Below, in pieces: positions 6,331-24,289 of a stretch of DNA of 32,000 bases (position 1 is the stretch's first letter; each line of letters starts with the position of its first letter). Source of the stretch: an uncultured Chloroflexia bacterium (GTDB taxonomy: Bacteria > Chloroflexota > Ktedonobacteria > Ktedonobacterales > JADMIN01); NCBI GenBank assembly GCA_963718915.1, contig CAVRAI010000015.1, positions 660,001 to 692,000 of the forward strand, read 5' to 3'. Both the position numbers and the translations under genes were made by a program. The notes under the pieces were generated by a model. The model did not search any database, was not told where the DNA came from, and saw only the letters and a program-made list of their open reading frames with translations.

Positions 6331-8223
6331 ATGTATGCGCAATCCGGGACACACAGCCATGGCGCATCGAACGGCGTAAGGCGTCTGCGCATTGCCCTGG
6401 CGCAGATCAACGTGACGGTCGGCGCGCTCTCGGCGAACGTCGAGCGCATCGTTCGCGCGGCCCGCGAGGCGCGCAAGGCAGGGGCGCAGATAGCCATTTT
6501 CCCCGAGCTGGCGATACCCGGCTACCCACCGGAAGATTTGTTGCTGCGGCCAGGATTCGTCGCGGATAATCTCCACGCGCTGGATGACGTCTGCCGCGCC
6601 ACTGCCGACCTGCCCGGCATGACCGTCCTTGTGGGCTTCGCCGACCGGGGCGCCGACCTCTACAACGCTGCGGCGATTCTCCGTGAGGGCGCCTGCCTGG
6701 ATGTCTACCACAAACACTTCCTGCCCAACTACAGCGTCTTCGACGAGGATCGCTACTTCCAGCCCGGCGAGAGCGCTCCGTGCTATCTGATCGATGGCGT
6801 GATGGTGGGCATCTCGATCTGTGAGGATATCTGGTATCCGGGCGGCCCGCCGACGATTCAGGCATACGCGGGCGCGGAGGTTTTGCTGAACCTCAGCTCG
6901 TCGCCGTTCTTCGTGGGTAAGCAGGCCGGACGCGAGCGGATGCTGGCCACGCGCGCCTCGGATACCGGCTCCATCGTCGCCTACTGTAATCTTGTCGGCG
7001 GCCAGGATGAGTTGATCTTTGACGGCAATAGCGTCGTCTTCGACGGCCAGGGCGAGTTGATCGCGCGCGCCAAAGCCTTCGAGGAGGATCTGCTGCTGGT
7101 TGACCTGGATATCGAGGATGTCTTTCGCACTCGCCTGCACGACCCGCGCCGTCGCAAAGAGAAGCTTGATCGGCAGAGCGCCGTGCCCGCGCCGCTGGCT
7201 ATTGGCGGCGAGGCGGCTCATGCCCATTTGTCACCGCCGCCCATCGCCGCACGGATCGAGCCGCTGCTCTCACGCGAGGAGGAGGCCTACCGCGCACTGG
7301 TGCTTGGCGTCCGTGACTATGTGGGCAAGAATGGCTTCTCCTCGGTGGTGATTGCGCTCTCCGGCGGTATAGACTCGGCGCTGACGGCGATGATTGCCGT
7401 GGACGCGCTGGGCGCCGACGCCGTGACGGGCGTCTCGATGCCGTCGCGCTACTCGTCTGATGGCAGCCGCGACGACGCGAAGACGCTGGCCGACAACCTT
7501 GGTATTCGCTATCTGACGCTGCCCATCGAGCCGGTATTTGCCGACATGCTGGATGTCTTGCGGGGACCGTTCGAGCTATTTCCCTCGTCGTCTACCCTGC
7601 CCGAAGAGAACCTTCAGGCGCGCATCCGGGGCAATCTGCTGATGGCGCTCTCGAATCGCTCCGGGGCGATAGTGCTGACGACGGGCAACAAGTCGGAGAT
7701 GGCCGTTGGCTATGCGACGCTCTATGGCGACATGGTGGGCGGATTCGCCGTCCTCAAAGATGTCTTCAAGACATTCCTGTATGATCTGGCGCGCTGGCGT
7801 AACGCTCAGGCGGGTCGCGACCTGATTCCCGAAAACACGATCATCAAGCCGCCCTCGGCGGAGCTGCGTCCCGACCAGAAAGATACGGATTCGCTGCCGC
7901 CCTATGAGGTGCTGGATCCCATCTTGCAGGCGTACGTCGAGGATGACCGCTCGCCCGCCGCGATTGTTGATATGGGCTACGATGCGGTAACGGTGCAGCG
8001 TGTCATAAAAATGGTGGAGCGGGCGGAATACAAACGGCGTCAGGCGCCTCCAGGCGTGAAGATTACCGAGCGGGCGTTTGGACGTGATCGCCGCCTGCCC
8101 ATCACCAATGGCTACAGTAGCGGAACGGGGTCGCCACGCACGAACGATATACACGGGCCAGCCGAGACAACGCGCGCACGCGCCAGCGCCAATGGTGGCC
8201 GTCACGCGCGCCGTGGCAGTTAG
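6331..8223 (+). CDS. nadE: Glutamine-dependent NAD+ synthetase (CN-hydrolase domain plus NAD synthetase domain)
   Basis: AGGAGG at 6319-6324, 6 nt before the ATG. N-terminal nitrilase-type triad context (FPELAIPGY, HKHFLPNY, ISICEDIWY). C-terminal ATP-pyrophosphatase SGGIDS motif (ALSGGIDSALTA). About 35 aa of extra basic C-terminal tail. Confidence 0.95.
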   Translation: MYAQSGTHSHGASNGVRRLRIALAQINVTVGALSANVERIVRAAREARKAGAQIAIFPELAIPGYPPEDLLLRPGFVADNLHALDDVCRATADLPGMTVLVGFADRGADLYNAAAILREGACLDVYHKHFLPNYSVFDEDRYFQPGESAPCYLIDGVMVGISICEDIWYPGGPPTIQAYAGAEVLLNLSSSPFFVGKQAGRERMLATRASDTGSIVAYCNLVGGQDELIFDGNSVVFDGQGELIARAKAFEEDLLLVDLDIEDVFRTRLHDPRRRKEKLDRQSAVPAPLAIGGEAAHAHLSPPPIAARIEPLLSREEEAYRALVLGVRDYVGKNGFSSVVIALSGGIDSALTAMIAVDALGADAVTGVSMPSRYSSDGSRDDAKTLADNLGIRYLTLPIEPVFADMLDVLRGPFELFPSSSTLPEENLQARIRGNLLMALSNRSGAIVLTTGNKSEMAVGYATLYGDMVGGFAVLKDVFKTFLYDLARWRNAQAGRDLIPENTIIKPPSAELRPDQKDTDSLPPYEVLDPILQAYVEDDRSPAAIVDMGYDAVTVQRVIKMVERAEYKRRQAPPGVKITERAFGRDRRLPITNGYSSGTGSPRTNDIHGPAETTRARASANGGRHARRGS

Positions 8224-11349: not shown

Positions 11350-11670
11350 ATGGCTGTAGAGCGCAAGATAGATGGCGCGACGCTGCCAGAATCCTTTCAG
11401 GAGATGGTCGAGGAAGCCGCTGAGCAAGGTCAGCCGGTGGTCATCGAACGTTTCGGTCAGGTTCTTGGCGTGGTGATTAGTCCAGGCGATTTCGCATTGC
11501 TCATGGCTCGTAAGCGCGCACTCGCTGAACTGGGCGATATCGTTGAACAGGTGCGCGCCAGATTTGCCGATCTTCCAGAAGATGAAGCAATAGCCGAGGC
11601 TGAACGCGCCGCACTGGAGACGAGATCTGAGATGCGTGCGGAGCGCTTGACAGAGCAGGCTGATAAATAG
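11350..11670 (+). CDS. Phd/YefM-like type II antitoxin
   Basis: ORF from 11335. GGAGGG at 11336-11341 favours ATG 11350. The N-terminal segment QPVVIERFGQVLGVVISPGDFALL resembles the Phd/YefM core. Acidic helical C-terminus. Its stop TAG overlaps the GTG of the PIN gene by 1 nt (taGTG). Confidence 0.7.
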   Translation: MAVERKIDGATLPESFQEMVEEAAEQGQPVVIERFGQVLGVVISPGDFALLMARKRALAELGDIVEQVRARFADLPEDEAIAEAERAALETRSEMRAERLTEQADK

Positions 11671-12008
11671 TGGACGTTGCTGTGCGCGCTGTCTATGACA
11701 CCACAATTCTGGTTTCAGGCATTGTCGCCACAAAAGATCCTATTGCCCTCCTCATCAATGCTGTAGTCCGCGGACAGATTGAGTTGATAATTTCGCCATA
11801 CATCCTCGAAGAATTGCGGCGTACACTTACTAGCAAGCAATATTTTCGTGATCGCATTACAGAGGCAGATCGAGAGACATATCTATCGCGGCTTGAAGCG
11901 GTGGCAACGCTCATCACGCCGCACCGCGTAATCTCTGGCATAGTAACTGACCCAAATGATGACCCAATAATCGCTCTCGCCACAAGCGCTCGGGTCAATA
12001 CCTTGTAA
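11670..12008 (+). CDS. PIN-domain toxin (TIGR00305-like), frameshift-truncated; the C-terminal remnant continues in another frame to 12109
   Basis: Conserved acidic positions VYDTTILVSG, ILEEL and DPNDDPIIALA are present. The canonical C-terminal YLVTGDKRVL...ILTAREF is encoded in a different frame at 11999..12109. Confidence 0.8.
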   Translation: MDVAVRAVYDTTILVSGIVATKDPIALLINAVVRGQIELIISPYILEELRRTLTSKQYFRDRITEADRETYLSRLEAVATLITPHRVISGIVTDPNDDPIIALATSARVNTL

Positions 12009-12260
12009 CGGGCGACAAGAGAGTCCTGGCGGTAGGTGAATATGAAGGCGTAAAGATTCTCACGGCTCGTGAGTTCTACGACATCGTGAGTCAGCAAGCA
12101 AGCTCATAAAGCCCGGGTGGTTTACTTGCCATTCGCTTCCACTTCGTCTTCTCGCCAGTGGAATGACGTGGTGCATGCCCGCAGTGAGTTGCCGTCGTGG
12201 TACACTAGCCGAGCAAGTGGATGTAGCCCAACCACGTAGATCCAGCAGACAGGCGGAGCG

Positions 12261-14228
12261 ATGGCGAGCGAAGAACAGACCGACGAGGCGCTGCGCGAGA
12301 TCGTGCGGGGCGACTTCGAGCCTGGCGGCATCCTCGCGCAAACGCTGCCGGGCTACGAGGAGCGGCCCGCGCAGGTGACGATGGCGCAGCGCGTCGCCGA
12401 TGCGCTCGAATCGGGCGACCACCTGATAGCTGAGGCTACAACGGGAACTGGCAAGGGAATCGCCTACCTCATACCCATCATCCGCTCCGGCAGAGTCGCC
12501 CTCATCAGCACCGCCAACAAGGCCCTCCAGGAGCAGCTCTTCTACAAAGACATCCCGTTTGTCCAGAAGCACGTCGCCCCATTCGAGGCGGCGCTGGTCA
12601 AGGGCATGGGCAACTACCTCTGCCTCGACCGCTTCACCGAGGAGGAATCGTTCCAGCAGCTGACCGGCGATCTTGCCTTCAAGGCGATGGTTGGACAGAT
12701 GGGCGACTTCGATCAGTGGAACGGCGACCTCGATCTGCTGGATATCCCATTGCGCAACGAACTGCGCGGGCGTATCGCGGGCGATAGCGACCAGTGCGCC
12801 TGGCGTAACTGTCCGCACTTCCACGACTGCTACATCCGCGAGATGCGCGAGCGCGCCCGGCAGGCGCAGGTGATCGTCGTCAACCACACACTGCTGCTGC
12901 TCGACGCCGCGATGGAGGGCTTTCTGCTGCCCGAGCGCGATGTCATCGTCATCGACGAGGCGCACCATCTGGAGGAGGAGGCCACCCGTGCCTTCACCGT
13001 CACCGTCTCCCCTGGCCGCGTGCAGAGCCTGCTCGCGCAGCAACGATTGCGCGCGCATGCCGATCCACTGGTCGTCCAGGAGACACTGGCCGCCCATCAG
13101 CGCGCGTGGGATGCGCTCGCCCGCGTTGCCAGGCCCGACGCGAAGGGACGCCAGCATCTGAGCGAGCCGCTGGAAGAGGGACTCGCGCTCGCCTCGGCGA
13201 TTGATGATCTGGCGACCAGTCTGCTGCGCAACCGTCCCATCACCGTCGAGGGCAAAGAGGAGCAGCTCTACGAGAAATTGGTCAAGCGCACCCGCAGCCT
13301 CGCCAAAGATGCGCGTATCGTCTTCGGCGTCAAGTCGCCCGATGAGCGCGTCTACTATCTGGAGAAGGTGGGCGGCACGCGCCGTCGCGAGGTTCAGCTT
13401 GCCGCATCGGCCGCGCCGCTCTCGGTCGCAGACCTGCTGCGCGAGAAGCTCTTCGACCGCATTCCGACTATTGCTACCTCGGCGACTCTGGCGGTCAATA
13501 GCCGCTTCACCTTCTTCCGCGAGCGTGTCGGGCTGCCCAAGTCACCCGAAATCGTCTTGCCGCATACCTTTGACTACCGTACGCATGCGCTGCTCTACGC
13601 GCCGCGACTGCGCCAGGAGCCAGCCTTTGGCGCGGCCAGCGGCCCCTATCTGGATGAGCTTGCGCGCGAGATGGCGGCGCTGGTCGAGGCATCGGAGGGG
13701 CGGGCGTTCCTGCTCTTTAGCAGCTTCAGCGCGCTCGAGGGCGTGCTGGCGCGTATCGAGGAGCAATTGCGTGACGACAATTATACCGTGCTGGTGCAGG
13801 GACGTGACCTGAACCGCATCGCTCTGCTTCAGGAGTTCAGGACGAGTCCGCGTGCGGTACTCTTTGGCCTCAAGAGCTTCTGGGAGGGCGTGGACGTACA
13901 GGGTGAGGCGCTCTCGCTGGTGGTGATCGACAAGCTGCCTTTCGATCCGCCCGATGATCCGGTGCATGAGGCGCGCGTCGCGAAGATGAAAGAGGCGGGT
14001 GTCAATTGGTTCGGCGAGTATGTGCTGCCACAGGCGATTCTGCGGCTGAAACAGGGCATTGGGCGGTTGTTGCGCACGCGCGACGACCGCGGCGTGATGG
14101 CGATTCTCGATAAGCGGCTCTACAGCAAGAGCTACGGACGCGAGGTGCTGGCAGCCCTACCGCCCGCCCGTCGGACCACCGATATCGAAGACGTGCGCGC
14201 ATTCTTCGCGAATGATGGGACGGACTAG
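12261..14228 (+). CDS. dinG: ATP-dependent DNA helicase, DinG/XPD (Rad3-related) family with an Fe-S cluster domain
   Basis: Walker A AEATTGTGKGIAYLIP. DEAH box VIDEAHHLEE. Four cysteines between motifs I and II (YLCLDRF, DQCAWRNCPHFHDC). C-terminal helicase motifs (FWEGVDVQGE, VIDKLPF, QGIGRLLR). Confidence 0.9.
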   Translation: MASEEQTDEALREIVRGDFEPGGILAQTLPGYEERPAQVTMAQRVADALESGDHLIAEATTGTGKGIAYLIPIIRSGRVALISTANKALQEQLFYKDIPFVQKHVAPFEAALVKGMGNYLCLDRFTEEESFQQLTGDLAFKAMVGQMGDFDQWNGDLDLLDIPLRNELRGRIAGDSDQCAWRNCPHFHDCYIREMRERARQAQVIVVNHTLLLLDAAMEGFLLPERDVIVIDEAHHLEEEATRAFTVTVSPGRVQSLLAQQRLRAHADPLVVQETLAAHQRAWDALARVARPDAKGRQHLSEPLEEGLALASAIDDLATSLLRNRPITVEGKEEQLYEKLVKRTRSLAKDARIVFGVKSPDERVYYLEKVGGTRRREVQLAASAAPLSVADLLREKLFDRIPTIATSATLAVNSRFTFFRERVGLPKSPEIVLPHTFDYRTHALLYAPRLRQEPAFGAASGPYLDELAREMAALVEASEGRAFLLFSSFSALEGVLARIEEQLRDDNYTVLVQGRDLNRIALLQEFRTSPRAVLFGLKSFWEGVDVQGEALSLVVIDKLPFDPPDDPVHEARVAKMKEAGVNWFGEYVLPQAILRLKQGIGRLLRTRDDRGVMAILDKRLYSKSYGREVLAALPPARRTTDIEDVRAFFANDGTD

Positions 14229-15628: not shown

Positions 15629-16087
15629 TCATGTGGCAACTCCCACGCCGACGACCACCGCCATCGCATGCTCGTGGGTATCGGAGATGCTTACGTCGAA
15701 GGCGACGAGTCCCAGCAGGCGCGCGCGGTCGGCTGCAGCTCCGTGCAATTGCAACCCGGGTTTGCCGGTGGGTAGGCGGATGATCTCGATATCATGCCAG
15801 TGAATCGCGCCGATGCCAGTTCCCAGCGCCTTGGCGCATGCCTCCTTGGCCGCGAAGCGCCCCGCCAGCCGATGGACGCGCCCCTTTGCCTGGTTCAGTT
15901 CGGTCTCGGTAAAGACCTTGTGGAGAAAGTGGTCGCCGAAGCGCTCCCATGTGCGGACGAGCCGCTCCACCTCCACCAGGTCTACGCCCACGGTCACCGC
16001 CAGGGGCGCTGCTGGAAGTTGAAGCGGCTCGCCAGGTGCGCCAGACTGCGCTGGCGCATCGGAAGACTCGGCGTCTCCCGTGGTCAT
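15629..16087 (-). CDS. acpS: Holo-[acyl-carrier-protein] synthase (4'-phosphopantetheinyl transferase)
   Basis: GVDLVEVERL...FTETEL...RFAAKEACAKALGTG...HWHDIEI...GKPGLQLHG...ISDTHEHAMAVVV. The ATG overlaps the ugd stop (ATGA, 16084-16087). About 30 aa of N-terminal extension. Confidence 0.9.
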   Translation of the reverse strand: MTTGDAESSDAPAQSGAPGEPLQLPAAPLAVTVGVDLVEVERLVRTWERFGDHFLHKVFTETELNQAKGRVHRLAGRFAAKEACAKALGTGIGAIHWHDIEIIRLPTGKPGLQLHGAAADRARLLGLVAFDVSISDTHEHAMAVVVGVGVAT

Positions 16088-17577
16088 TTGCCCCGTCCAT
16101 TACTACTGCTCGAAGCTTTGGCTTTGCTCACCGAGCGTGTGGTTCGCGCAGTAGCAACGGCAGTCTTTGCCTGCGCCGCGATCCCGCCATTGCCCTGGCC
16201 GTTACTGTGGCTTTTCCCATTACTGTGTCCATTGCCGTTGCGGCGCTCTACCCCGTGGCCGATGCCATGGTAGCGGAAGCCCAACCGGCGCATCTCCGTC
16301 GGGTCGTAGAGATTGCGTCCGTCAATCAGCACGCGCCCCTCTTCGCGCGGGAGCATCTCATCACGCAGTCGCGCGAAGTTGATGTCACGGAAACGCTTCC
16401 ACTCGGTGATGACGAGGATACCATGCGTACCACGCGCGGCCTCATACTCATCCTCACAGAAGGTCAGCCCCGCGCCCGGCAGCACCTGCCGCGCCGTCTC
16501 GGTCGCCACCGGGTCGAAGGCGCGCACGTTTGCGCCAGCCTCCAGCAGCCAGCGAATGATAAGGATTGAGGGCGCCTCGCGCATGTCGTCGGTATTATCC
16601 TTGAAGGCCAGCCCCAGGACGGCGAACGTCTTGCCCTCCAGGCTGCCGGGGCCGCCGTGCTCCTGCTCCAGCTTGTCGATGACGACGTGGCGCTGGTCGT
16701 CGTTGATCTTCATCACTGCGTCCAGAAGCTGTGGGTGCAGTCCCGCCTCGCCTGCCATGTGCGCCAGAGCCTTCACGTCTTTCGGGAAGCACGAACCGCC
16801 GTAACCCAGGCCAGCATCCAGGAAGGCGCGCCCGATGCGCTTATCGTAGCCCATCCCGGCGGCGACTTCCTTCACATCGGCGCCCAGGCGGTCACAGATG
16901 CGCGCCATCTCGTTGATGAACGAAATCTTGGTTGCCAGGAAGGCATTCGAGGCGTATTTGATCATCTCGGCGGTATAGAGATCGGTGATGACTATCGGCG
17001 CGCGCACCGGATGATACAACTGCGCGACCTTATCAGCCGCCGCACGATCCGTCGAACCGAGGACGACGCGATCAGGTTGGAGAAAGTCCTGGACGGCAGA
17101 GCCTTCGCGCAGGAACTCGGGGTTGGACACGACCGACACCTTGAGCGATGTATTCACCAGATGCTCGTGGATGATGGCCGAGACCAGATCGCCGCTGCCA
17201 ACTGGCATCGTGCTCTTGTTGACGATGATCGCGTCGTTACGCAGGTGCTCGGCAATCGAGCGCGCCGCAAGCTCGACGAACGACATGTCGGCGCCGTCGC
17301 CACCCTGCACCGTCGGCGTATTGACCGCGATGAAGATGAATTCGACGTCCTTCATCGCCTCCGCGTAGCTGGTAGTGAAGCGCAGCCGCTTTGCGTCCAC
17401 GTTGCGCGTGACCATTGGATGCAGGCCCGGCTCATAAATAGGAAGCTCACCGGCCTTCAATCGCTCGATCTTCGTGGCAACTACATCCAGGCAGGTGACC
17501 TGATTGCCCAGATCGGCCAGACATGTGCCAGTGACCAGGCCAACGTACCCTGTCCCAACAACACAGATTTTGCTCAT
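16084..17577 (-). CDS. ugd: UDP-glucose 6-dehydrogenase
   Basis: N-terminal Rossmann motif ICVVGTGYVGLVTG. Catalytic-Cys motif GYGGSCFPKDV. UDPG_MGDP_dh C-terminal domain. About 50 aa of extra N/G/S-rich C-terminal tail. Confidence 0.95.
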   Translation of the reverse strand: MSKICVVGTGYVGLVTGTCLADLGNQVTCLDVVATKIERLKAGELPIYEPGLHPMVTRNVDAKRLRFTTSYAEAMKDVEFIFIAVNTPTVQGGDGADMSFVELAARSIAEHLRNDAIIVNKSTMPVGSGDLVSAIIHEHLVNTSLKVSVVSNPEFLREGSAVQDFLQPDRVVLGSTDRAAADKVAQLYHPVRAPIVITDLYTAEMIKYASNAFLATKISFINEMARICDRLGADVKEVAAGMGYDKRIGRAFLDAGLGYGGSCFPKDVKALAHMAGEAGLHPQLLDAVMKINDDQRHVVIDKLEQEHGGPGSLEGKTFAVLGLAFKDNTDDMREAPSILIIRWLLEAGANVRAFDPVATETARQVLPGAGLTFCEDEYEAARGTHGILVITEWKRFRDINFARLRDEMLPREEGRVLIDGRNLYDPTEMRRLGFRYHGIGHGVERRNGNGHSNGKSHSNGQGNGGIAAQAKTAVATARTTRSVSKAKASSSSNGRGK

Positions 17578-17763
17578 TCCAGTTATTTCCTCAACAACCT
17601 CTTCAGCGTCTTACTTCGCATGCCGCAAAGACGTTCCAGTGTACAACAGGATAACGGCGAGGGAGTCAGCTTATCCCTCACATCAGGTGAAACCAGCGAC
17701 CCCCAGCCCGGTAACGGCGCTGGTACGACGCGACCACGCGATGATATCCACAAGGCTGCCGGT

Positions 17764-18462
17764 TCAGCCTCCGCGCACGAACGGATTCATGCGCCGCTCT
17801 TCGCCGATGGTGGTGGCCTCGCCGTGACCTGGGAGAACCAGCAACTCGGCTGGCAGCGGGTAGAGACGTGTCAGAATACTCTCGTAGATTGCGTCTTCAT
17901 CTCCTCCAGGCAGATCGGTTCGTCCGATACCACGCCGGAAGAGCGTGTCGCCCGAAAGCAACCACGCGCTATCTTGCGCCTCCTCAGCATCCGGTGCGTC
18001 CGAAGCGTCCCGCGGCTCATACAACAGACAGATGCTGCCGGGCGTATGTCCTGGTGTAGCAATCACCCGCAGCCTTAGTGTACCCACCTCGACCAACATA
18101 CCCTCTGTGATAGTACTATCCGGCAGGGCCAGGCGCTCCGGGAGCGGATAGCCGAACTGCTCGCCCCAACCGCGCGCCTCGCGGCTGTACAGGTACTCAT
18201 CCGCTGGATGCGCCAGCACTGGAACGGGCGCATCCAGTCCGGCTAGCAGCGCCTCAGTCGCGCTGATATGGTCAAAGTGGCCGTGTGTATGCAGAATCTT
18301 TACCACCGACACGCCGCGTTCGCGAATCCGCGCCAGAATCCGCTCAGCCTCGTCGCCCGGATCAACCACCATCGCCGCCTGTGTCCGCGGGCAGACGACC
18401 AGATAGCAGTTCGCATCCAGCTCGCCGACGGCGAACCCCTCGATCATCGAGTCGTCTCCCAT
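17764..18462 (-). CDS. MBL-fold metallo-hydrolase (glyoxalase II-like)
   Basis: ORF to 18501, but AGGAG sits 6 nt upstream of ATG 18462 (MGDDSMIEGF). Metal motif HTHGHFDH, TPGHTPGS, later GHG. Confidence 0.85.
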   Translation of the reverse strand: MGDDSMIEGFAVGELDANCYLVVCPRTQAAMVVDPGDEAERILARIRERGVSVVKILHTHGHFDHISATEALLAGLDAPVPVLAHPADEYLYSREARGWGEQFGYPLPERLALPDSTITEGMLVEVGTLRLRVIATPGHTPGSICLLYEPRDASDAPDAEEAQDSAWLLSGDTLFRRGIGRTDLPGGDEDAIYESILTRLYPLPAELLVLPGHGEATTIGEERRMNPFVRGG

Positions 18463-18760
18463 GGGATGCTCCTGTCGGGTTAAAATCATGAACGGATACA
18501 AGGTGTGATGGTATCTGGCGCTGGTACATCATGGACGGCAGCCGACGGTCTGGCAATCGTCGCGCGTTATGCATTGTATGGCATATCGTCGATGCTCGTC
18601 ATGTATGCGTCATGCGTGTGTTATGTGTGCGTTATGTGCGTGGGCCGTCCCACTCGTTGACAGCGGCTGGCTCGCTCTCCGATAATGTGAGATGACAGGC
18701 GTGGAGGAGCGTCCCGTGGGGGAAGCGATGGCGCGCCGCGCAGGGAGAGGAATTGCAGGG

Positions 18761-19903
18761 ATGAGTCACTTCCCTTTGGCATATTTCGTTCTGAATCTTG
18801 ACCCCATTCTGGTGCGCTTTGGCCCGTTCGCCGTCCACTGGTACGGCATCGCCTATGTCGTCGCCATCGCCGTCGCGTTGTTTGTGATCCTGCGCTGGGC
18901 GCGGCGCGAGGGCATTCACGACGACCAGATTTGGGGGTTGTTTATCTGGGCCGCGATTGGCGGGTTGATTGGCGGGCGACTCTATTTTGTCCTGCAACAG
19001 CCTGATCTGGTCGAGAAATATCTGCTCAATCCCATCAACATCATCGCCGTCTGGAACGGTGGCATGGCGTTCTTTGGCGCAATCTTCCTCGGGTCAGCGA
19101 TACTCTTCATCCTGGCGCCGCGCTACGGGCTGGACCGCTGGATTGTGCTGGATGGCGCCGCGCTCTTCGCGGCGGTTGGGCAAATCTTCGGGCGTTTCGG
19201 CAACATCGTCAATGGCGATATTCTTGGCAAGGCTGCTGGCGGGGCCGTCACTCTGCCGTCGGGCGTCTGCGCCAATCTCAGCGCGCCATGCTTCGCGTAT
19301 GTGCCCGACCCGCATATCCTGCCATGGGCGCTAGTTTATCTCAACCCCAACAACAGCTTTGTCCCACTGGGCGTGCCATTTCAGCCTGCCCAAGTCTACG
19401 AGATACTCTTCAATCTGGTGGCGCTGGCGCTGCTCTGGCCGCTTCGCCATCGTTTGCCGAAGGTGCGCGCAGGTCTCTTCTTCACGCTTTATCTGGCGCT
19501 CTATGCCATCAGCCAGTTCTCCGTCTTCTTCTTCCGCGCAACGGAGCCGACCACGCCCTTCCTCGGCATCAGCGGATTGAAGCAGGCGCAGTGGACCGCG
19601 ATTATTGTCTTCCTGCTCTGCATCCCACTGGCGATTTTGGTGTTGCGGGTCTCGAAGCCCTGGCCGTTCTCGGATGCGCGTCCCGTGCCATGGCCGAATT
19701 TTTCCCCCGTTGACCAGCAATCGCCCGCGCGCAACCCCGCCGCGAATGCGTTGATTGCGCCGCCCGCACGCCAGCGCGGGGCGATTCCGAGCGCGGCAAC
19801 ACCGCCGCCCTCCGACCTACCGCCGTGGCAGCCGACGCGCCCGACCGGAGGGCAGTTGCGCAATTTGTTCGGCGATATGGCGCGCACAAGCTCGAGCCAG
19901 TAG
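18761..19903 (+). CDS. lgt: Prolipoprotein diacylglyceryl transferase
   Basis: ORF from 18692; ATG 18761 (MSHFPLAYF) is preferred. Motifs FAVHWYGIAYV and GQIFGRFGNIVNGDILG (Lgt GRxGN signature). Multiple TM helices. About 85 aa P/A-rich C-terminal tail. Confidence 0.9.
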   Translation: MSHFPLAYFVLNLDPILVRFGPFAVHWYGIAYVVAIAVALFVILRWARREGIHDDQIWGLFIWAAIGGLIGGRLYFVLQQPDLVEKYLLNPINIIAVWNGGMAFFGAIFLGSAILFILAPRYGLDRWIVLDGAALFAAVGQIFGRFGNIVNGDILGKAAGGAVTLPSGVCANLSAPCFAYVPDPHILPWALVYLNPNNSFVPLGVPFQPAQVYEILFNLVALALLWPLRHRLPKVRAGLFFTLYLALYAISQFSVFFFRATEPTTPFLGISGLKQAQWTAIIVFLLCIPLAILVLRVSKPWPFSDARPVPWPNFSPVDQQSPARNPAANALIAPPARQRGAIPSAATPPPSDLPPWQPTRPTGGQLRNLFGDMARTSSSQ

Positions 19904-20596: not shown

Positions 20597-20718
20597 TGAT
20601 GCATCCCGCGCAAGCGGCAACGCAGGTAGTTGGTGAACGGTTCGCGACCTGAAGACTGCGACTCATCCTGGCCCTGCTGTATCCACTTGCTTGTCACTAC
20701 ACAACGGCTGTTCGCTCG

Positions 20719-20727
20719 TGCTATACT
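20719..20727 (+). promoter_or_regulatory. Extended -10 promoter candidate (TGcTATACT) for the first TIR-WD40 gene
   Basis: tg at 20719-20720 and tatact at 20722-20727, about 42 nt upstream of ATG 20769. The homologous position upstream of the second gene reads gcgcTATACA (22785-22790). Confidence 0.3.
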
Positions 20728-20768
20728 GAATGCACTCTTCACCCTCAGTAGAGCAAATGGAGTGTAGT

Positions 20769-22619
20769 ATGGCAACTTCGAGAACCCACCACAAGCGCGT
20801 CTTCATCAGCTATTCGCGTGCCGACAGCGCCACGATAGACCGCCTGGAGGCTGAACTCATCAGTTATGGCTTCAAGACCTGGGTTGATCGCCAGCATCTG
20901 GAGGGTGGCGACAAATGGGCAGAGAAGATTGAGCAGGCTATTCAAGAGTGTGATGCCGTCGTTGTGGGTCTCTCGCCGGATGCTGTCGCGTCTCCCTGGG
21001 TAACCAATGAACTGTTTTATGCCCAGCAGTTGGAAAAGACGATCATTCCTGTCTTGCTACACCCAGTGAAGCGTATTCCTCTGCTGATCGTCGCTATTCA
21101 GTATATTAGTATGCATGTGGATGAGTCGCAGGGCCTGCAACAACTGCGCCTGCGCCTGCTGCGTCTCGGCGAGCATGCGACAACGACAGGATCAGCGCAT
21201 CCAGCGTTCTCGCAGACATCTTCCCATCGCATTGCCTCTACTGCCCAGGAGCATAGCGGTGAGCCAGCCGCTCAACTGGTGGCGCTGCCAGCCGCCGCGC
21301 CTACCGCCGATCTCAACGACTTGTTTCAACAGGGTTTCGCGGCCAAAGCACATGGGGATCTCGAACAGGCAGAGGCGCTGCTATCGCAGGTAGTCGAGCG
21401 CGATGCGCGGTTCGGCGATGGTGTTGCCGCCCAACAGTTGGAAGAGACGCGGCAGCAATTGCTCCCGCCGCAGCTTGCCCGCTTACGCCAGCAGGGACGG
21501 CAGGCGGAAGCAAAGGGCGCATGGGCTGAGGCGATTGGCGCCTGGAAGGCTCTGCTTGAGCGAGTACCTGATGATGTCGAAACGCAAACCGCGCTGGAAC
21601 GAGACCAGCAGAACCGGGATGCCAGCTGGCTCTATTCCACCGCGCGTGACCTGGTGCAGAAGGGCGATTGGTCTGCCTTCCAGGAAATGTGGCGCCTGCT
21701 CCACGAACGTGCTCCGTTCTATGGCGATCCAGATGAGGTATTCGCGTTGGTACCACCAGAATATGTACGTGGCGCTGTGCTGCTTACTCTAGCGGGACAC
21801 ACCAATGCGGTAGCGGGCATTGCCTGGTCGCCCGACGGAACACGGCTTGCCACTGCCAGCAAAGATCAGACGGTGCGCATTTGGGAAGCAGCAACTGGCA
21901 AACAGCTTATCGTCTGCAAGGGGCACACCGGTTACGTGACGAGTGTCGCCTGGTCGCCCGACGGGCAGCGACTCGCCAGTTCATGTGACGATAACGCGGA
22001 TAGAACCGTGCGCGTCTGGGAAGCTGCGACAGGAAACCCGCTGGTCGTCTGTTCGGGGCATACTGGTGGAGTGAGTAGTGTCGCCTGGTCGCCCGATGGG
22101 CAGCGACTCGCCACCGCTAGCGTAGATCAGACCGCGCGCACCTGGGAGGCCGCCACTGGGAAACCACTGCATATCCTGCAAGGCCATACCGAAACAGTGT
22201 TTGGTATAGCCTGGTCGCCCGACGGGCAACGACTTGCCACCGCCAGCGGGGATAAAACCGCGCGCACCTGGGAGGCTGCTACTGGGAAACAGTCGAACAT
22301 CCTGCAGGGCCATACCGCAACGGTGAATGACATATCATGGGCGCCCAATGGCCAGCATCTGGCTACAGCGGGTTGGGATTACTCCGTACGGACATGGGAT
22401 GCTAATAGCGGCAAGCAGATTCTCGCCCTGCAGAATGCTGACAAGATGGCATTTGGAGTAGCCTGGTCACCCGACAGCTATCGACTTGTGAGTTGCGATC
22501 ATCATGTACACGTGTGGAATGCTAGTACTGGTAAACTCTTGTTCGATTGTCAGGGTCAAAGTGAGGTGACTTTTAGCGTCGCCTGGTCTGCCGGACGGCG
22601 AGCGTATCGCCACTGGTAG
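20769..22619 (+). CDS. TIR domain / TPR-like helical region / 7-blade WD40 protein; apparent frameshift in the last blade, corrected reading frame ends at 22653
   Basis: ORF from 20730. GGAG at 20759-20762 favours ATG 20769. TIR_2-like VFISYSRADS...WVDRQHLEGGDKW...SPWVTNELFYA. Blades carry GHTxxVxx[IV]AWSPDGxRLA and VR[IV]W. Confidence 0.9.
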   Translation: MATSRTHHKRVFISYSRADSATIDRLEAELISYGFKTWVDRQHLEGGDKWAEKIEQAIQECDAVVVGLSPDAVASPWVTNELFYAQQLEKTIIPVLLHPVKRIPLLIVAIQYISMHVDESQGLQQLRLRLLRLGEHATTTGSAHPAFSQTSSHRIASTAQEHSGEPAAQLVALPAAAPTADLNDLFQQGFAAKAHGDLEQAEALLSQVVERDARFGDGVAAQQLEETRQQLLPPQLARLRQQGRQAEAKGAWAEAIGAWKALLERVPDDVETQTALERDQQNRDASWLYSTARDLVQKGDWSAFQEMWRLLHERAPFYGDPDEVFALVPPEYVRGAVLLTLAGHTNAVAGIAWSPDGTRLATASKDQTVRIWEAATGKQLIVCKGHTGYVTSVAWSPDGQRLASSCDDNADRTVRVWEAATGNPLVVCSGHTGGVSSVAWSPDGQRLATASVDQTARTWEAATGKPLHILQGHTETVFGIAWSPDGQRLATASGDKTARTWEAATGKQSNILQGHTATVNDISWAPNGQHLATAGWDYSVRTWDANSGKQILALQNADKMAFGVAWSPDSYRLVSCDHHVHVWNASTGKLLFDCQGQSEVTFSVAWSAGRRAYRHW

Positions 22620-22653
22620 CGCTGGTGGCGCCGCGCGGGTGTGGCGAGTATAA
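21795..22653 (+). repeat. Tandem coding repeats (about 126-nt period, 7 units) encoding WD40 blades
   Basis: The recurrent string gcctggtcgcccga[ct]gg appears at about 21826, 21949, 22084 and 22210, with degenerate copies later. Units 3 and 4 share long identical stretches (accgcgcgcacctgggaggc). Confidence 0.85.
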
Positions 22654-22702
22654 GCGGCGCGCGCGGGATTAGCCGCAGCATAAGAGATGCGCTGGCGGCT
22701 CA

Positions 22703-22754
22703 AGCCGCGCCTATGGGCCGTTGGCCGCAAAGCCCGCCTGCGCGGGCTGCAGAA
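22703..22754 (+). repeat. Intergenic double-hairpin repeat, family 1, copy B
   Basis: agccgcgcctatgGGCCgttGGCCgcaaAGCCCGCctgcGCGGGCTgcagaa. Lies 49 nt after the frame-corrected stop of the first TIR-WD40 gene. Confidence 0.75.
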
Positions 22755-22834
22755 ACAGATGTAAATGTGATTGCGCGCTGGCGCTATACACTAAAAGCGT
22801 CTTTCGCCCTCAGTAGCGCAAGCAGGAGCGTGGC

Positions 22835-24289
22835 ATGAGTGCAGCCGCGAATAGTCCCACCAACGTCTTCATCAGCTACTCGCGCGCCGACAGCGCCGCC
22901 ATAGACCGTCTGGAAGCCGAACTGATCGGCTTCGGCTTCATAACCTGGGTTGACCGTGAACATCTGGAGGGCGGCGACCGTTGGGCGGCGCAGATCGAGC
23001 GCGCCATCCAGATGAGCGATGTTGTTGTGGTTTGTCTCTCGCCAGACGCTGTTAATTCACCCTGGGTGACCAATGAACTGTTTTATGCGCAGCAACTAGG
23101 CAAGCCAATCATCCCGATACTGCTGCATCCAGTAGCGCGCATTCCACTGTTGCTGGCTGCCATTCAATACATCGACATGCAGGCAGATGAAGCACGGGGA
23201 GTTCAGCAATTGCGCCTCCGGTTGCTGCGCCTCAGCGGGCAGTCTATCGCAGTCGAACCAGAGCAATCGACACCCACGATTGCACACAACATCGCTCCAA
23301 CTCCCCAGCCATATGCTAACGATCCTCTAGCTCAATCTAATTATAGCGACCCCAGTACCTCCCACAGTTCAACACCCTTAGTTCACTCGGCTGCAACCAT
23401 ACTTAAGGTGTGCCTGAGTGACATGTTAAATGAACTTGCGGTCGCGTGGTCGCCCGATGGTCAGCGGCTGGCAATTGGGGGTAGTGAGGTAGTGATACAG
23501 ATCTGGGATGTGGCAACGAGAAAATCGCTTGTAACCTGTGAAGGTCATACAGGGTCAGAACATGAGGTAGCATGGTCGCCGGACGGGAAGCGACTGGCGA
23601 GCGCGAGCGGAGATTCGACAGCCCGAATCTGGGATGTTGATACAGGGAAATCGCTGCTCACCTACCAAAACCACTTTTTCGGCCATATGCCAGTGGGTGT
23701 GCAAAGTGTGGCGTGGTCGCCCGATGGAAAGCGGCTGGCAAGCGCAGGTCAAGATGCGAAGGTGCAAATCTGGGACGCGGATTCAGGAGCGACTCTCCGC
23801 ACCTGCTGGATCCATACGAAGGCTGTCGTTGGAGTCGCGTGGTCGCCTGATGGGAAGCGGCTGGCGAGCGCAAGCCTGGATCTCACGGTGCGGATATGGG
23901 ATGCCACAACGGGCGAGCCGCTGCTCACGTGTCGGGGCCATAGCGAAGCGGTATTTGGGATAGCGTGGTCACCTGATGGAACGCGATTGGCGAGCGCAAG
24001 CGCGGATCACACAGTGCGAATATGGGACGCAAGGTTGGACCAACCGCCGCTGCTCCTCTGCCTAGGCCATGCTAAGGACGTGTTAGGGGTGGCATGGTCG
24101 CCTGACGGGACGCGGCTGGCAAGCGCGAGCATGGATCAGACGGTGCGAATCTGGGATGCCGCAACGGGCGAGCTAGCGCTTACCTATCAGGGCCATACAG
24201 GCGACGTACAGAAAGTCGCGTGGTCGCCCGATGGGAAGTGGCTGGCAAGCGCAAGCGCTGATGGAACAGTGCGCCTGTGGCAGATGTAG
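22835..24289 (+). CDS. TIR domain / 7-blade WD40 protein (paralog of the upstream gene, no helical spacer)
   Basis: AGGAG at 22824-22828, 6 nt before the ATG. TIR segment is 97/123 identical to the upstream paralog by hand alignment. Seven AWSPDG[KTQ][RW]LA blades. Ends ...GTVRLWQM. Confidence 0.92.
   Translation: MSAAANSPTNVFISYSRADSAAIDRLEAELIGFGFITWVDREHLEGGDRWAAQIERAIQMSDVVVVCLSPDAVNSPWVTNELFYAQQLGKPIIPILLHPVARIPLLLAAIQYIDMQADEARGVQQLRLRLLRLSGQSIAVEPEQSTPTIAHNIAPTPQPYANDPLAQSNYSDPSTSHSSTPLVHSAATILKVCLSDMLNELAVAWSPDGQRLAIGGSEVVIQIWDVATRKSLVTCEGHTGSEHEVAWSPDGKRLASASGDSTARIWDVDTGKSLLTYQNHFFGHMPVGVQSVAWSPDGKRLASAGQDAKVQIWDADSGATLRTCWIHTKAVVGVAWSPDGKRLASASLDLTVRIWDATTGEPLLTCRGHSEAVFGIAWSPDGTRLASASADHTVRIWDARLDQPPLLLCLGHAKDVLGVAWSPDGTRLASASMDQTVRIWDAATGELALTYQGHTGDVQKVAWSPDGKWLASASADGTVRLWQM
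23426..24289 (+). repeat. Tandem coding repeats (about 126-nt period, 7 units) encoding WD40 blades
   Basis: The recurrent string gcgtggtcgcc[cgt]ga[ct]gg[ag]a[ac]gcg[ga]ctggc[ga]agcgc appears through the array. Confidence 0.85.

Follow-up and report, generated by a model that had tools for sequence, protein, structure and literature searches.

An NTPase-less pair of TIR–WD40 genes in a Ktedonobacterales genome: candidate single-chain sensor–effector proteins

The window analysed here is a 32,000-nt chromosomal stretch from a member of the Ktedonobacterales (Chloroflexota), to which all coordinates below refer. It carries two neighbouring open reading frames (ORFs) on the plus strand, at 20730/20769..22619 (gene 1) and 22835..24289 (gene 2), which are 215 nt apart. 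Both products start with a TIR domain and carry a C-terminal WD40 propeller, and no NTPase domain was detected between the two. The modular organization of the genes is listed below, with confidence in the AlphaFold2 models given as the predicted local distance difference test score (pLDDT).

20769..22619, plus strand: gene 1 as assembled, TIR-TPR-WD40, 616 aa, with a 3' end truncated by a frameshift; an alternative ATG lies upstream at 20730.
20796..21161, plus strand: TIR domain of gene 1 (residues 10-131), Pfam TIR_2; pLDDT mostly 80-90; Foldseek matches to SPARTA and SARM1 TIRs.
21009..21011, plus strand: GAA codon of gene 1 Glu81, the candidate catalytic glutamate, in a W77-x-x-x-E81 motif within SPWVTNELFYAQ.
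21174..21272, plus strand: disordered linker of gene 1 (residues 136-168), pLDDT <50.
21312..21710, plus strand: TPR-type domain of gene 1 (residues 182-314), seven helices, pLDDT >90; kept across 29 proteins and missing from gene 2.
21780..22653, plus strand: WD40 propeller of gene 1, seven repeats; blade 6 is degenerate and blade 7 runs on in the +1 frame to the stop codon at 22651-22653.
22835..24289, plus strand: gene 2, TIR-linker-WD40, 484 aa, intact; an identical public protein is P0001.
22862..23242, plus strand: TIR domain of gene 2 (residues 10-136), Pfam TIR_2, E 2.5e-27; pLDDT >90.
23075..23077, plus strand: GAA codon of gene 2 Glu81, counted from the start at 22835, likewise within SPWVTNELFYAQ.
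23246..23428, plus strand: low-confidence linker of gene 2 (residues 138-198, about 60 residues); no TPR, and no Pfam match in residues 133-202.
23432..24286, plus strand: WD40 propeller of gene 2 (residues 200-484), seven repeats; modelled by AlphaFold2 as seven blades with at least 28 strands, pLDDT ~97.

The public call for gene 1 (P0005, 616 aa) begins at 20769 and shares one contig with P0001. This start is preferred to 20730 because it agrees with P0005, follows an upstream GGAG and shares a homologous leader with gene 2. The 25 nt located 5' of both starts (20744-20768 and 22810-22834) are homologous and read CTCAGTAG.GCAA..GGAG.GT...ATG, and the duplication therefore took in the leader together with the Shine-Dalgarno sequence. 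The modules of the two genes have diverged to different degrees. The TIR segments are identical at 97 of 125 residues (78%; 73% at the nucleotide level), whereas the propellers are only 44-50% identical. An earlier prediction made from the same DNA (the original prediction) had described an adjacent, same-strand pair with N-terminal TIR_2 domains, which Pfam confirms (E 2e-27 and 2.5e-27); the 97 TIR identities that it counted by hand are also correct, although they extend over 125 rather than 123 positions.

Both proteins belong to the TIR superfamily, as evidenced by profile scores (TIR_2, PF13676: 96.5 bits and E 2e-27 for gene 1, 96.2 bits for gene 2, against a gathering score of 28), by the beta-alpha core of the AlphaFold2 models, and by Foldseek matches to solved TIRs with a probability of 1.00. 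Searching the sequences of solved structures with the TIR retrieved Cat1, the bacterial TIR 7uxr, the SARM1 TIR, a plant TIR and AbTir. In these alignments, E81 coincides with the glutamate of the SARM1 motif WVHKE and with the equivalent glutamate of Cat1 and 7uxr, while Y15, R17, D40, G47 and W77 match residues of the SARM1 segments SYRR, IDVEKLEAG and W. The six residues, which presumably line the NAD+ site in SARM1, are invariant in 17 family members. The codons assigned to the catalytic position in the original prediction are thus placed correctly, as both are GAA and encode residue 81 from the starts at 20769 and 22835, and the alignments with SARM1, Cat1 and 7uxr and the invariance in 17 homologues bear out the assignment itself. 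Among the Foldseek matches listed, the best in the PDB were SPARTA TIR-APAZ proteins (E ~2e-5), SARM1, Hydra TRR-2, a Bacillus cereus TIR and Cat1; non-catalytic TIRs (Hydra TRR-2, TLR1 and MAL) are also found among the structural neighbours. Purely adaptor TIRs often lack a glutamate at the catalytic position. By sequence, the TIR domains of both genes look to be catalytic and of the NADase type.

A Walker A motif ([AG]xxxxGK[ST]) is absent from both proteins, as determined by a regular-expression scan, and NTPase families are missing from the Pfam, NCBIfam and PADLOC matches obtained with the whole proteins and with the isolated inter-domain segments. AlphaFold2 modelled the first 332 residues of gene 1 with a pLDDT of 81 and a predicted template modelling score of 0.76. 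The model features, in order, the TIR (residues 10-131), a disordered stretch (136-168), a conserved LVALP strand and a seven-helix, all-alpha domain (182-314). When this model was compared with the PDB, only the TIR part was aligned, over approximately 130-150 columns, and the 50 matches listed, of 1,422 at E <= 10, are all TIR-domain proteins, none of which is described as an NTPase. A cryptic NTPase in the spacer was considered and rejected, since the Walker A scan, the Pfam search with the isolated spacer, the AlphaFold2 model and the listed Foldseek matches gave no sign of one. The proteins do not feature the central P-loop NTPase that separates effector from repeats in STAND/NLR proteins, and the absence of such a switch claimed in the original prediction holds at the level of motif, profile and fold.

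The spacer of gene 1 falls just below the Pfam gathering score for TPR (TPR_6, 23.9 bits versus 26.3). However, TPR_2 or TPR_14 is matched by 9 of 14 homologous spacers, with a best E of 1.8e-9, and the profile of the spacer family matches consensus TPR structures (for instance CTPR3, E 1.2e-9). Judged by the family profiles and the helical model, the spacer is a genuine TPR domain. The original prediction, which had described a TPR-like helical spacer of about 215 aa, was right as to the kind of domain but not as to its length, as the structured part spans approximately 135-150 aa and follows a disordered linker of about 35 aa. Hence, the set of domains that it expected from Pfam was found (TIR_2 and WD40, with no P-loop NTPase), with the TPR of the gene 1 copy remaining below threshold and being supported through its family.

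WD40 repeats (PF00400) are recognized with E values of 5e-62 in gene 1 and 2e-72 in gene 2, and seven repeats were counted in each protein. The two TIR–seven-blade fusions foreseen in the original prediction are present in terms of repeats, but blade 7 of gene 1 is cut by a frameshift. Gene 1 as assembled ends with SVAWSAGRRAYRHW and a stop codon, and most of blade 7 is lost. The next frame reads PDGERIATGSAGGAARVWRV up to the stop codon at 22651-22653, which corresponds to the conserved C-terminus of the orthologues. Deleting one base at 22589-22591 gives a 627-aa protein with a full seventh blade. The frameshift could be either an assembly error or a genuine truncation; P0005 provides no independent check because it derives from the same assembly. 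The N-terminus of gene 1 is divergent as well (MATSRTHHKR versus the family consensus MSAAANRPTS). Additional features of the genes are the following.

22589..22591, plus strand: one-base insertion in blade 7 of gene 1; with one base removed, the C-terminus reads SPDGERIATGSAGGAARVWRV followed by a stop codon, as in the orthologues.
22083..22325, plus strand: 126-bp tandem period in gene 1, in which adjacent blades share 84% DNA identity over 1.9 copies.
20698..20727, plus strand: sigma-70-like promoter match 5' of gene 1; weak, as one site was found versus a mean of 1.5 in shuffled sequence, which is not significant.

In gene 2, blades with the same 126-bp period (23812-24256) show 69-72% matches over about three copies. 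Such sequence repeats suggest recent duplication of blades or gene conversion. Within the repeats, the scaffold is conserved, and the most variable positions sit in the GHTxxVxxV and SxDxT motifs; we take these positions to be the loops of the WD40 top face. A comparable pattern of variable hotspot sites has been described in young prokaryotic WD40 proteins (PMC5587647). In the same study, WD40 proteins are termed highly repetitive when internal identity is roughly 70% or more, and the internal identity of the window propellers is only moderate. The promoter and terminator scan was uninformative as to whether genes 1 and 2 are co-transcribed.

A phmmer search with the TIR alone against a library of 1.84 billion proteins returned 51,012 representatives at E <= 1e-3 (129 at E <= 1e-30), and TIRs of this type are therefore very common. 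Close relatives of the TIR (at least 50% identity) are Ktedonobacterales proteins. The top-scoring TIR relatives in the library are giant proteins (P0123-P0134, 1,200-2,300 aa) with 5-7 tandem TIRs and about 30-34% identity. With a profile of the TIR and the spacer, 29 proteins were found, of which 13 reach E <= 1e-60. The TIR and TPR form a conserved cassette in 12 of the 13 (75-100% of the length, 39-69% identity), with differing C-termini; the thirteenth is the spacer-less gene 2 itself, at 52% coverage. The C-termini associated with the cassette are as follows.

No recognized extra domain: proteins of 357-503 aa.
Double zinc ribbon: 430 aa.
TPR/PD40: 505 aa.
PQQ propeller: 572 aa.
FHA: 481-529 aa.
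WD40: 616-709 aa.

In sequence comparisons, TIR+TPR is a constant Ktedonobacterales cassette with C-terminal modules that appear to be swapped. This does not agree with the minimal two-domain module of the original prediction, as the constant unit is TIR+TPR and WD40 is one of several C-terminal modules. In more distant members of the TIR group, the domain is fused directly to FGS, CHAT or SIR2. Kaur et al. count such domains among the sensors or effectors in conflict systems that are enriched in multicellular bacteria (PMC8195603, PMC7159879).

None of the TIR proteins encoded at 78 related genomic loci contains a Walker A motif. TIR_2+WD40 proteins confirmed by Pfam were found in Anaerolineae and Thermoflexus (about 450 aa) and in a Hyphomonadaceae genome (1,031 aa); a 1,162-aa protein from a gammaproteobacterial genome is a weaker case, and Microcystis and Microcoleus carry proteins with multiple TIRs and WD40 repeats. 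As far as domain profiles indicate, the NTPase-less TIR–WD40 design is widespread across several phyla and not rare. The ~450-aa gene of Anaerolineae and Thermoflexus adjoins a gene for an NgoMIV-type restriction enzyme at two loci, an N6/N4 DNA methylase at five and a radical SAM gene at seven (restriction-modification adjacency was seen at L006 8738-12207, L012 9995-13489, L007, L008 and L013), and this type II restriction-modification adjacency in distant relatives lends weak contextual support to the sensor–effector reading proposed below. At the Hyphomonadaceae locus (L019), an ORF of about 1,063 aa (15772-18963) lies 2.7 kb 3' of the 1,031-aa TIR-WD40 gene and may be a paralogue; an ORF with a guanylate-cyclase domain is found just upstream.

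In the literature searched, we found no paper that names or tests an NTPase-less TIR–WD40 protein, and TIR is not mentioned in a survey of prokaryotic WD40 proteins. Older comparative-genomic surveys reportedly noted fusions of TIRs with WD40 or TPR repeats in bacteria. The statement of the original prediction that the pair is not among the named defence systems is in line with our searches, as none with this architecture was encountered in PADLOC, NCBIfam or that literature.

The genes upstream of the pair encode UvrA, NadE, a GNAT protein, an M19 dipeptidase, DinG, UDP-glucose dehydrogenase, a metallo-beta-lactamase-fold protein, Lgt and a HIT protein. Those downstream encode two permeases of a sugar ABC transporter, a solute-binding protein, 3-hydroxyacyl-CoA dehydrogenase and thiolase. 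No Rfam family was detected in the window. The original prediction had envisaged a location in a defence island, but the neighbours are housekeeping genes, no mobile element was identified, and the PADLOC scan of the window matches only a generic DinG, 6.5 kb away. The latter is a DinG/XPD-type helicase (12261-14228; PADLOC typeIV_DinG, E 7e-130) with no type IV Cas genes nearby; its assignment to a type IV CRISPR system was rejected, as the profile is generic and Cas partners are missing, and it is probably a housekeeping gene. NadE, a glutamine-dependent NAD+ synthetase encoded at 6331-8223, 12.5 kb 5' of the pair, is most likely a housekeeping enzyme as well, and its proximity coincidental.

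The order ACPS, UDP-glucose dehydrogenase, metallo-beta-lactamase-fold protein, Lgt and HIT, followed by a TIR gene, is common to two Ktedonobacterales metagenome-assembled genomes. In GZL_HY_2_bin.35 (L003 6287-8149), the site is occupied by a long TIR-TPR-WD40 gene (P0010), located at a contig end. On contig 104 of the same genome (L002 427-1719), a TIR-TPR paralogue with double zinc ribbons maps to an unrelated locus, where it adjoins haem-biosynthesis genes (ferrochelatase-, HemA- and HemC-like ORFs). SMAG_U3883, the closest relative, has one short TIR-WD40 gene without TPR (L005 10001-11425, 474 aa). In this genome, the single TIR-WD40 gene is separated from the ABC permease by a DinB_2 gene (11465-12169) that is missing from the window. 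Gene content at the locus is therefore polymorphic, as the original prediction had anticipated, with two genes in the window, one short gene in SMAG_U3883 and a long gene in GZL_HY_2_bin.35; a conserved pair, which it had also anticipated, is not seen.

The propeller evolves fast at this locus. When the window and SMAG_U3883 are compared, flanking proteins are 80-94% identical and TIRs 73-81%, but the propeller only 45%; at the DNA level, flanks are 84-92% identical and the propeller regions cannot be aligned. The TIR and 5' region of gene 2 are nearer to the relatives than those of gene 1 (81% versus 73% of amino acids in SMAG_U3883, 77% versus 72.6% of nucleotides in GZL_HY_2_bin.35), yet gene 1 holds the ancestral TPR, and these sequence relationships consequently suggest recombination among paralogues at the locus.

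Base composition sets the pair apart only at third codon positions. The G+C content of the two genes (0.58-0.59) is close to that of the neighbours (0.57-0.68), whereas their third-position G+C content (GC3) is 0.605 versus 0.68-0.81 in the window neighbours. The low spot G+C content reported in the original prediction is numerically correct (0.517, against 0.75 in a core gene) but is not representative, as the contrast is real only in GC3. TIR-family genes have a GC3 of 0.52-0.61 versus 0.68-0.83 in the flanks at four loci of three genomes (the window, L005, L003 and L002). Low GC3 is no proof of recent import because it is found family-wide, including in syntenic orthologues; it may stem from low expression, turnover or foreign origin. 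A horizontally acquired island was rejected, since neither a tRNA nor a mobility gene was detected and two relatives share the synteny of the flanks. A 661-aa ORF with PD40-type beta-propeller repeats at 90-2075 of the window also has a low GC3 (0.60).

Our preferred reading, tentative and slightly less likely than not, is that these are single-chain sensor–effector proteins without an NTPase, in which a ligand of the propeller would cluster the TIRs and NAD+ would be cleaved. That these proteins cleave NAD+, assemble on a ligand and take part in conflict or immunity is our inference. The variable top face of the propeller would bind a protein ligand, probably multimeric or repetitive, and foreign or non-self. 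Binding would raise the local concentration of TIRs, which the TPR module, where present, may keep apart or pre-oligomerise. TIR-TIR contacts would then complete the Glu81 active site for cleavage of NAD+, and either NAD+ depletion or an ADP-ribose (ADPR)-derived signal would cause the cell or filament compartment to stop growing or die. The divergence of the propeller, far faster than that of the flanks, and the variable gene content of the locus speak for this reading, as do the domain architecture, the missing NTPase, the catalytic-type TIR residues and fold, the variable repeat positions of the propeller, the exchangeable C-termini of the cassette and the Swarozyc precedent.

Several observations weigh on the other side. 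Housekeeping genes (Lgt and HIT upstream, the sugar ABC transporter downstream) flank the locus in conserved synteny, and no defence-type neighbour (PADLOC), tRNA or mobility gene was found in the window. PADLOC and NCBIfam models match the TIR domain only, far below the family cut-offs. The frameshift in gene 1 and its degenerate blade 6 indicate that part of the module may be decaying, and the closest relative manages with a single short gene, so that the conserved two-gene module of the original prediction does not stand. Versions of the cassette with FHA or zinc ribbons fit ordinary signalling equally well. The restriction-modification adjacency in Anaerolineae represents shared synteny in one lineage and not independent co-occurrence, and the low GC3 could simply reflect low expression.

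It may also be that gene 1 is a decaying duplicate and gene 2 alone is functional, a transient birth-and-death state generated by unequal recombination between the TIR-coding repeats. We regard this as somewhat unlikely; it is compatible with clustering of TIRs by a propeller ligand and with each of the alternatives below. The loss of blade 7, the degenerate blade 6 and the divergent N-terminus all point to decay of gene 1, the 5' region and TIR of gene 2 are the ones nearer to the relatives, and a single-gene state exists in SMAG_U3883. However, the frameshift could be an assembly error, and the rest of gene 1 reads as an uninterrupted ORF of 616 codons with conserved TIR and TPR residues.

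Alternatively, the proteins may be non-enzymatic scaffolds, in which TIRs engage in homotypic interactions only, as in animal TLR adaptors, and WD40 and TPR repeats hold together an endogenous regulatory or developmental complex of a filamentous, sporulating bacterium. The housekeeping flanks, the conserved synteny, an inheritance that looks vertical and the lack of defence neighbours would all suit such a role, as would cassette relatives with FHA (phosphopeptide-binding) and zinc-ribbon tails, typical of signalling, and the presence of the non-catalytic TRR-2, TLR1 and MAL among the structural neighbours. Three findings make it unlikely nonetheless: the glutamate and the W-x-x-x-E motif do not vary within the family, the best fold matches among those listed are NADase TIRs, and a propeller at 45% identity between flanks at 80-94%, combined with variable gene content, would not be expected of a typical core regulator.

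Signalling nucleotides are produced by the TIRs of Thoeris and of plants. The window proteins, triggered through WD40, might similarly generate a messenger, either an isomer of cyclic ADPR or a molecule of the His-ADPR type, that activates an effector encoded elsewhere, instead of killing through loss of NAD+. Partial TIR matches to the ThsB model of PADLOC and to the NCBIfam model of the type III Thoeris protein ThcB4, as well as Pfam ThsB_TIR matches in cassette relatives, hint in this direction. We nevertheless consider it improbable, given that no ThsA-like gene (SIR2, SLOG or Macro) or other candidate receptor gene adjoins the TIR genes of the window, L003 or L005, that the ThcB4 match reaches 45 bits against a cut-off of 220, and that the closest folds among those listed are depleting NADases. 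An obligate hetero-oligomer of a long and a short protein, acting as sensor and helper like paired plant TIR receptors, is very unlikely: although the two genes follow each other on one strand with 215 nt between them, and have homologous leaders and propellers divergent enough (44-50% identity against 78% for the TIRs) to allow different ligands, the closest relative has one short gene at the locus, another has the long form there and its zinc-ribbon paralogue elsewhere, gene 1 is frameshifted, and the terminator and operon evidence points neither way.

Extending the proposal of ligand-driven clustering, the TIR+TPR cassette may be imagined as a portable, nucleotide-independent switch that replaces the STAND NTPase and is fitted with exchangeable detectors (WD40, PQQ propeller, FHA or zinc ribbon); birth-and-death turnover together with recombination at fixed chromosomal loci would give rise to a germline repertoire of one-protein innate sensors. 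This is a speculative idea to which we give little credence. In such an arrangement, the TPR and the invariant LVxLP strand would either keep the TIR in an inactive state or pre-oligomerise it, and copies that lack the spacer, gene 2 among them, might serve as partners or decoys.

TIR domains are an executioner common to bacterial, plant and animal immunity, and much of the comparative-genomic literature consulted puts them behind an NTPase switch. If our reading of the window proteins is true, a TIR joined directly to WD40 shows how far ligand-driven clustering can replace that switch, and a single-gene candidate is added to the NAD+-based systems of cell suicide. Fast evolution at a fixed locus flanked by housekeeping genes would moreover draw attention to a place where defence genes are seldom sought. 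If the proteins are ordinary scaffolds, they call for caution against reading every glutamate-bearing bacterial TIR as an immune NADase.

Membership in Thoeris, SPARTA, CBASS TIR-SAVED, retron-TIR and TIR-NLR systems was considered and rejected, as matches are restricted to the TIR and below cut-off, and the partner genes are missing here. TIR-NLR and STAND sensors (bNACHT, Avs and TIR-NB-ARC-WD40/TPR proteins) likewise feature an N-terminal TIR and a C-terminal WD40 or TPR array presumed to be the sensor. Enrichment in filamentous or multicellular bacteria is a further trait common to both kinds (PMC7159879, PMC8195603). The P-loop NTPase located between effector and sensor in TIR-NLR and STAND proteins is, however, absent from the window proteins, and the PADLOC TIR-NLR model matches gene 2 only, with an E of 0.044 and over the TIR alone. 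Fungal WD40 NLRs of the HET-E/NWD group have similarly conserved repeats with few hypervariable positions, a possible self/non-self role and a filamentous host. In contrast to the window proteins, they contain a NACHT NTPase and other N-terminal effectors, and the internal repeat identity of the window propellers is moderate.

ThsB of Thoeris is also a TIR protein proposed to sense infection, and the ThsB and ThcB4 models match the window TIR partially. No adjacent ThsA-type effector was found in the window, L003 or L005, and the ThcB4 score (45 versus 220 bits) is low; to our knowledge, ThsB proteins do not carry WD40 propellers. The TIR effectors of CBASS and Pycsar (TIR-SAVED, TIR-STING, PycTIR) go together with a SAVED or STING nucleotide sensor and a cyclase gene close by; here, the SAVED_TIR model is matched only over its first 94 positions, corresponding to the TIR part, and no cyclase is encoded in the window. 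SARM1 shares with the window TIRs the motifs SY.R, D...LE.G and W...E, and it, too, has no NTPase switch but helical-repeat and oligomerisation domains within one chain. It differs in being an animal protein whose ARM and SAM domains precede the TIR, in its regulation by nicotinamide mononucleotide and NAD+, and in the absence of WD40.

The closest solved fold among the matches listed is the SPARTA TIR-APAZ protein (8i87, 8isy and 8spo; E ~2e-5, about 130 residues, 24-27% identity). The titles of the SPARTA structures, on which this precedent is based, speak of "tetramerized activation" with NAD+ bound, and there is no NTPase. The PADLOC models of TIRs associated with prokaryotic Argonaute (pAgo), Aga_TIR, are among the best domain matches, aligned only over profile positions ~3-133, the TIR part. 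SPARTA combines APAZ with an adjacent short Argonaute and senses a duplex of guide RNA and target DNA, whereas the window has neither APAZ nor a pAgo neighbour and the putative sensor is a WD40 propeller. Swarozyc consists of a DUF4062 TIR-like NADase domain and an auxiliary domain; its assembly on the phage portal leads to NAD+ depletion and abortive infection (bioRxiv 10.64898/2026.05.01.722283). Similar to the window proteins, it joins a TIR-type NADase domain and a C-terminal binding domain in one polypeptide with no NTPase, and it is the best mechanistic precedent for NTPase-less activation by assembly. It differs in having DUF4062 instead of PF13676, another auxiliary domain and defence-gene neighbourhoods in Enterobacteria; the TIR-only and short relatives of the window proteins match only TIR_2, TIR and ThsB_TIR (E <= 1e-6) and not DUF4062. 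Given that TIR effectors activated by assembly are already known, what would be new in the window proteins is the propeller sensor carried on a TIR effector.

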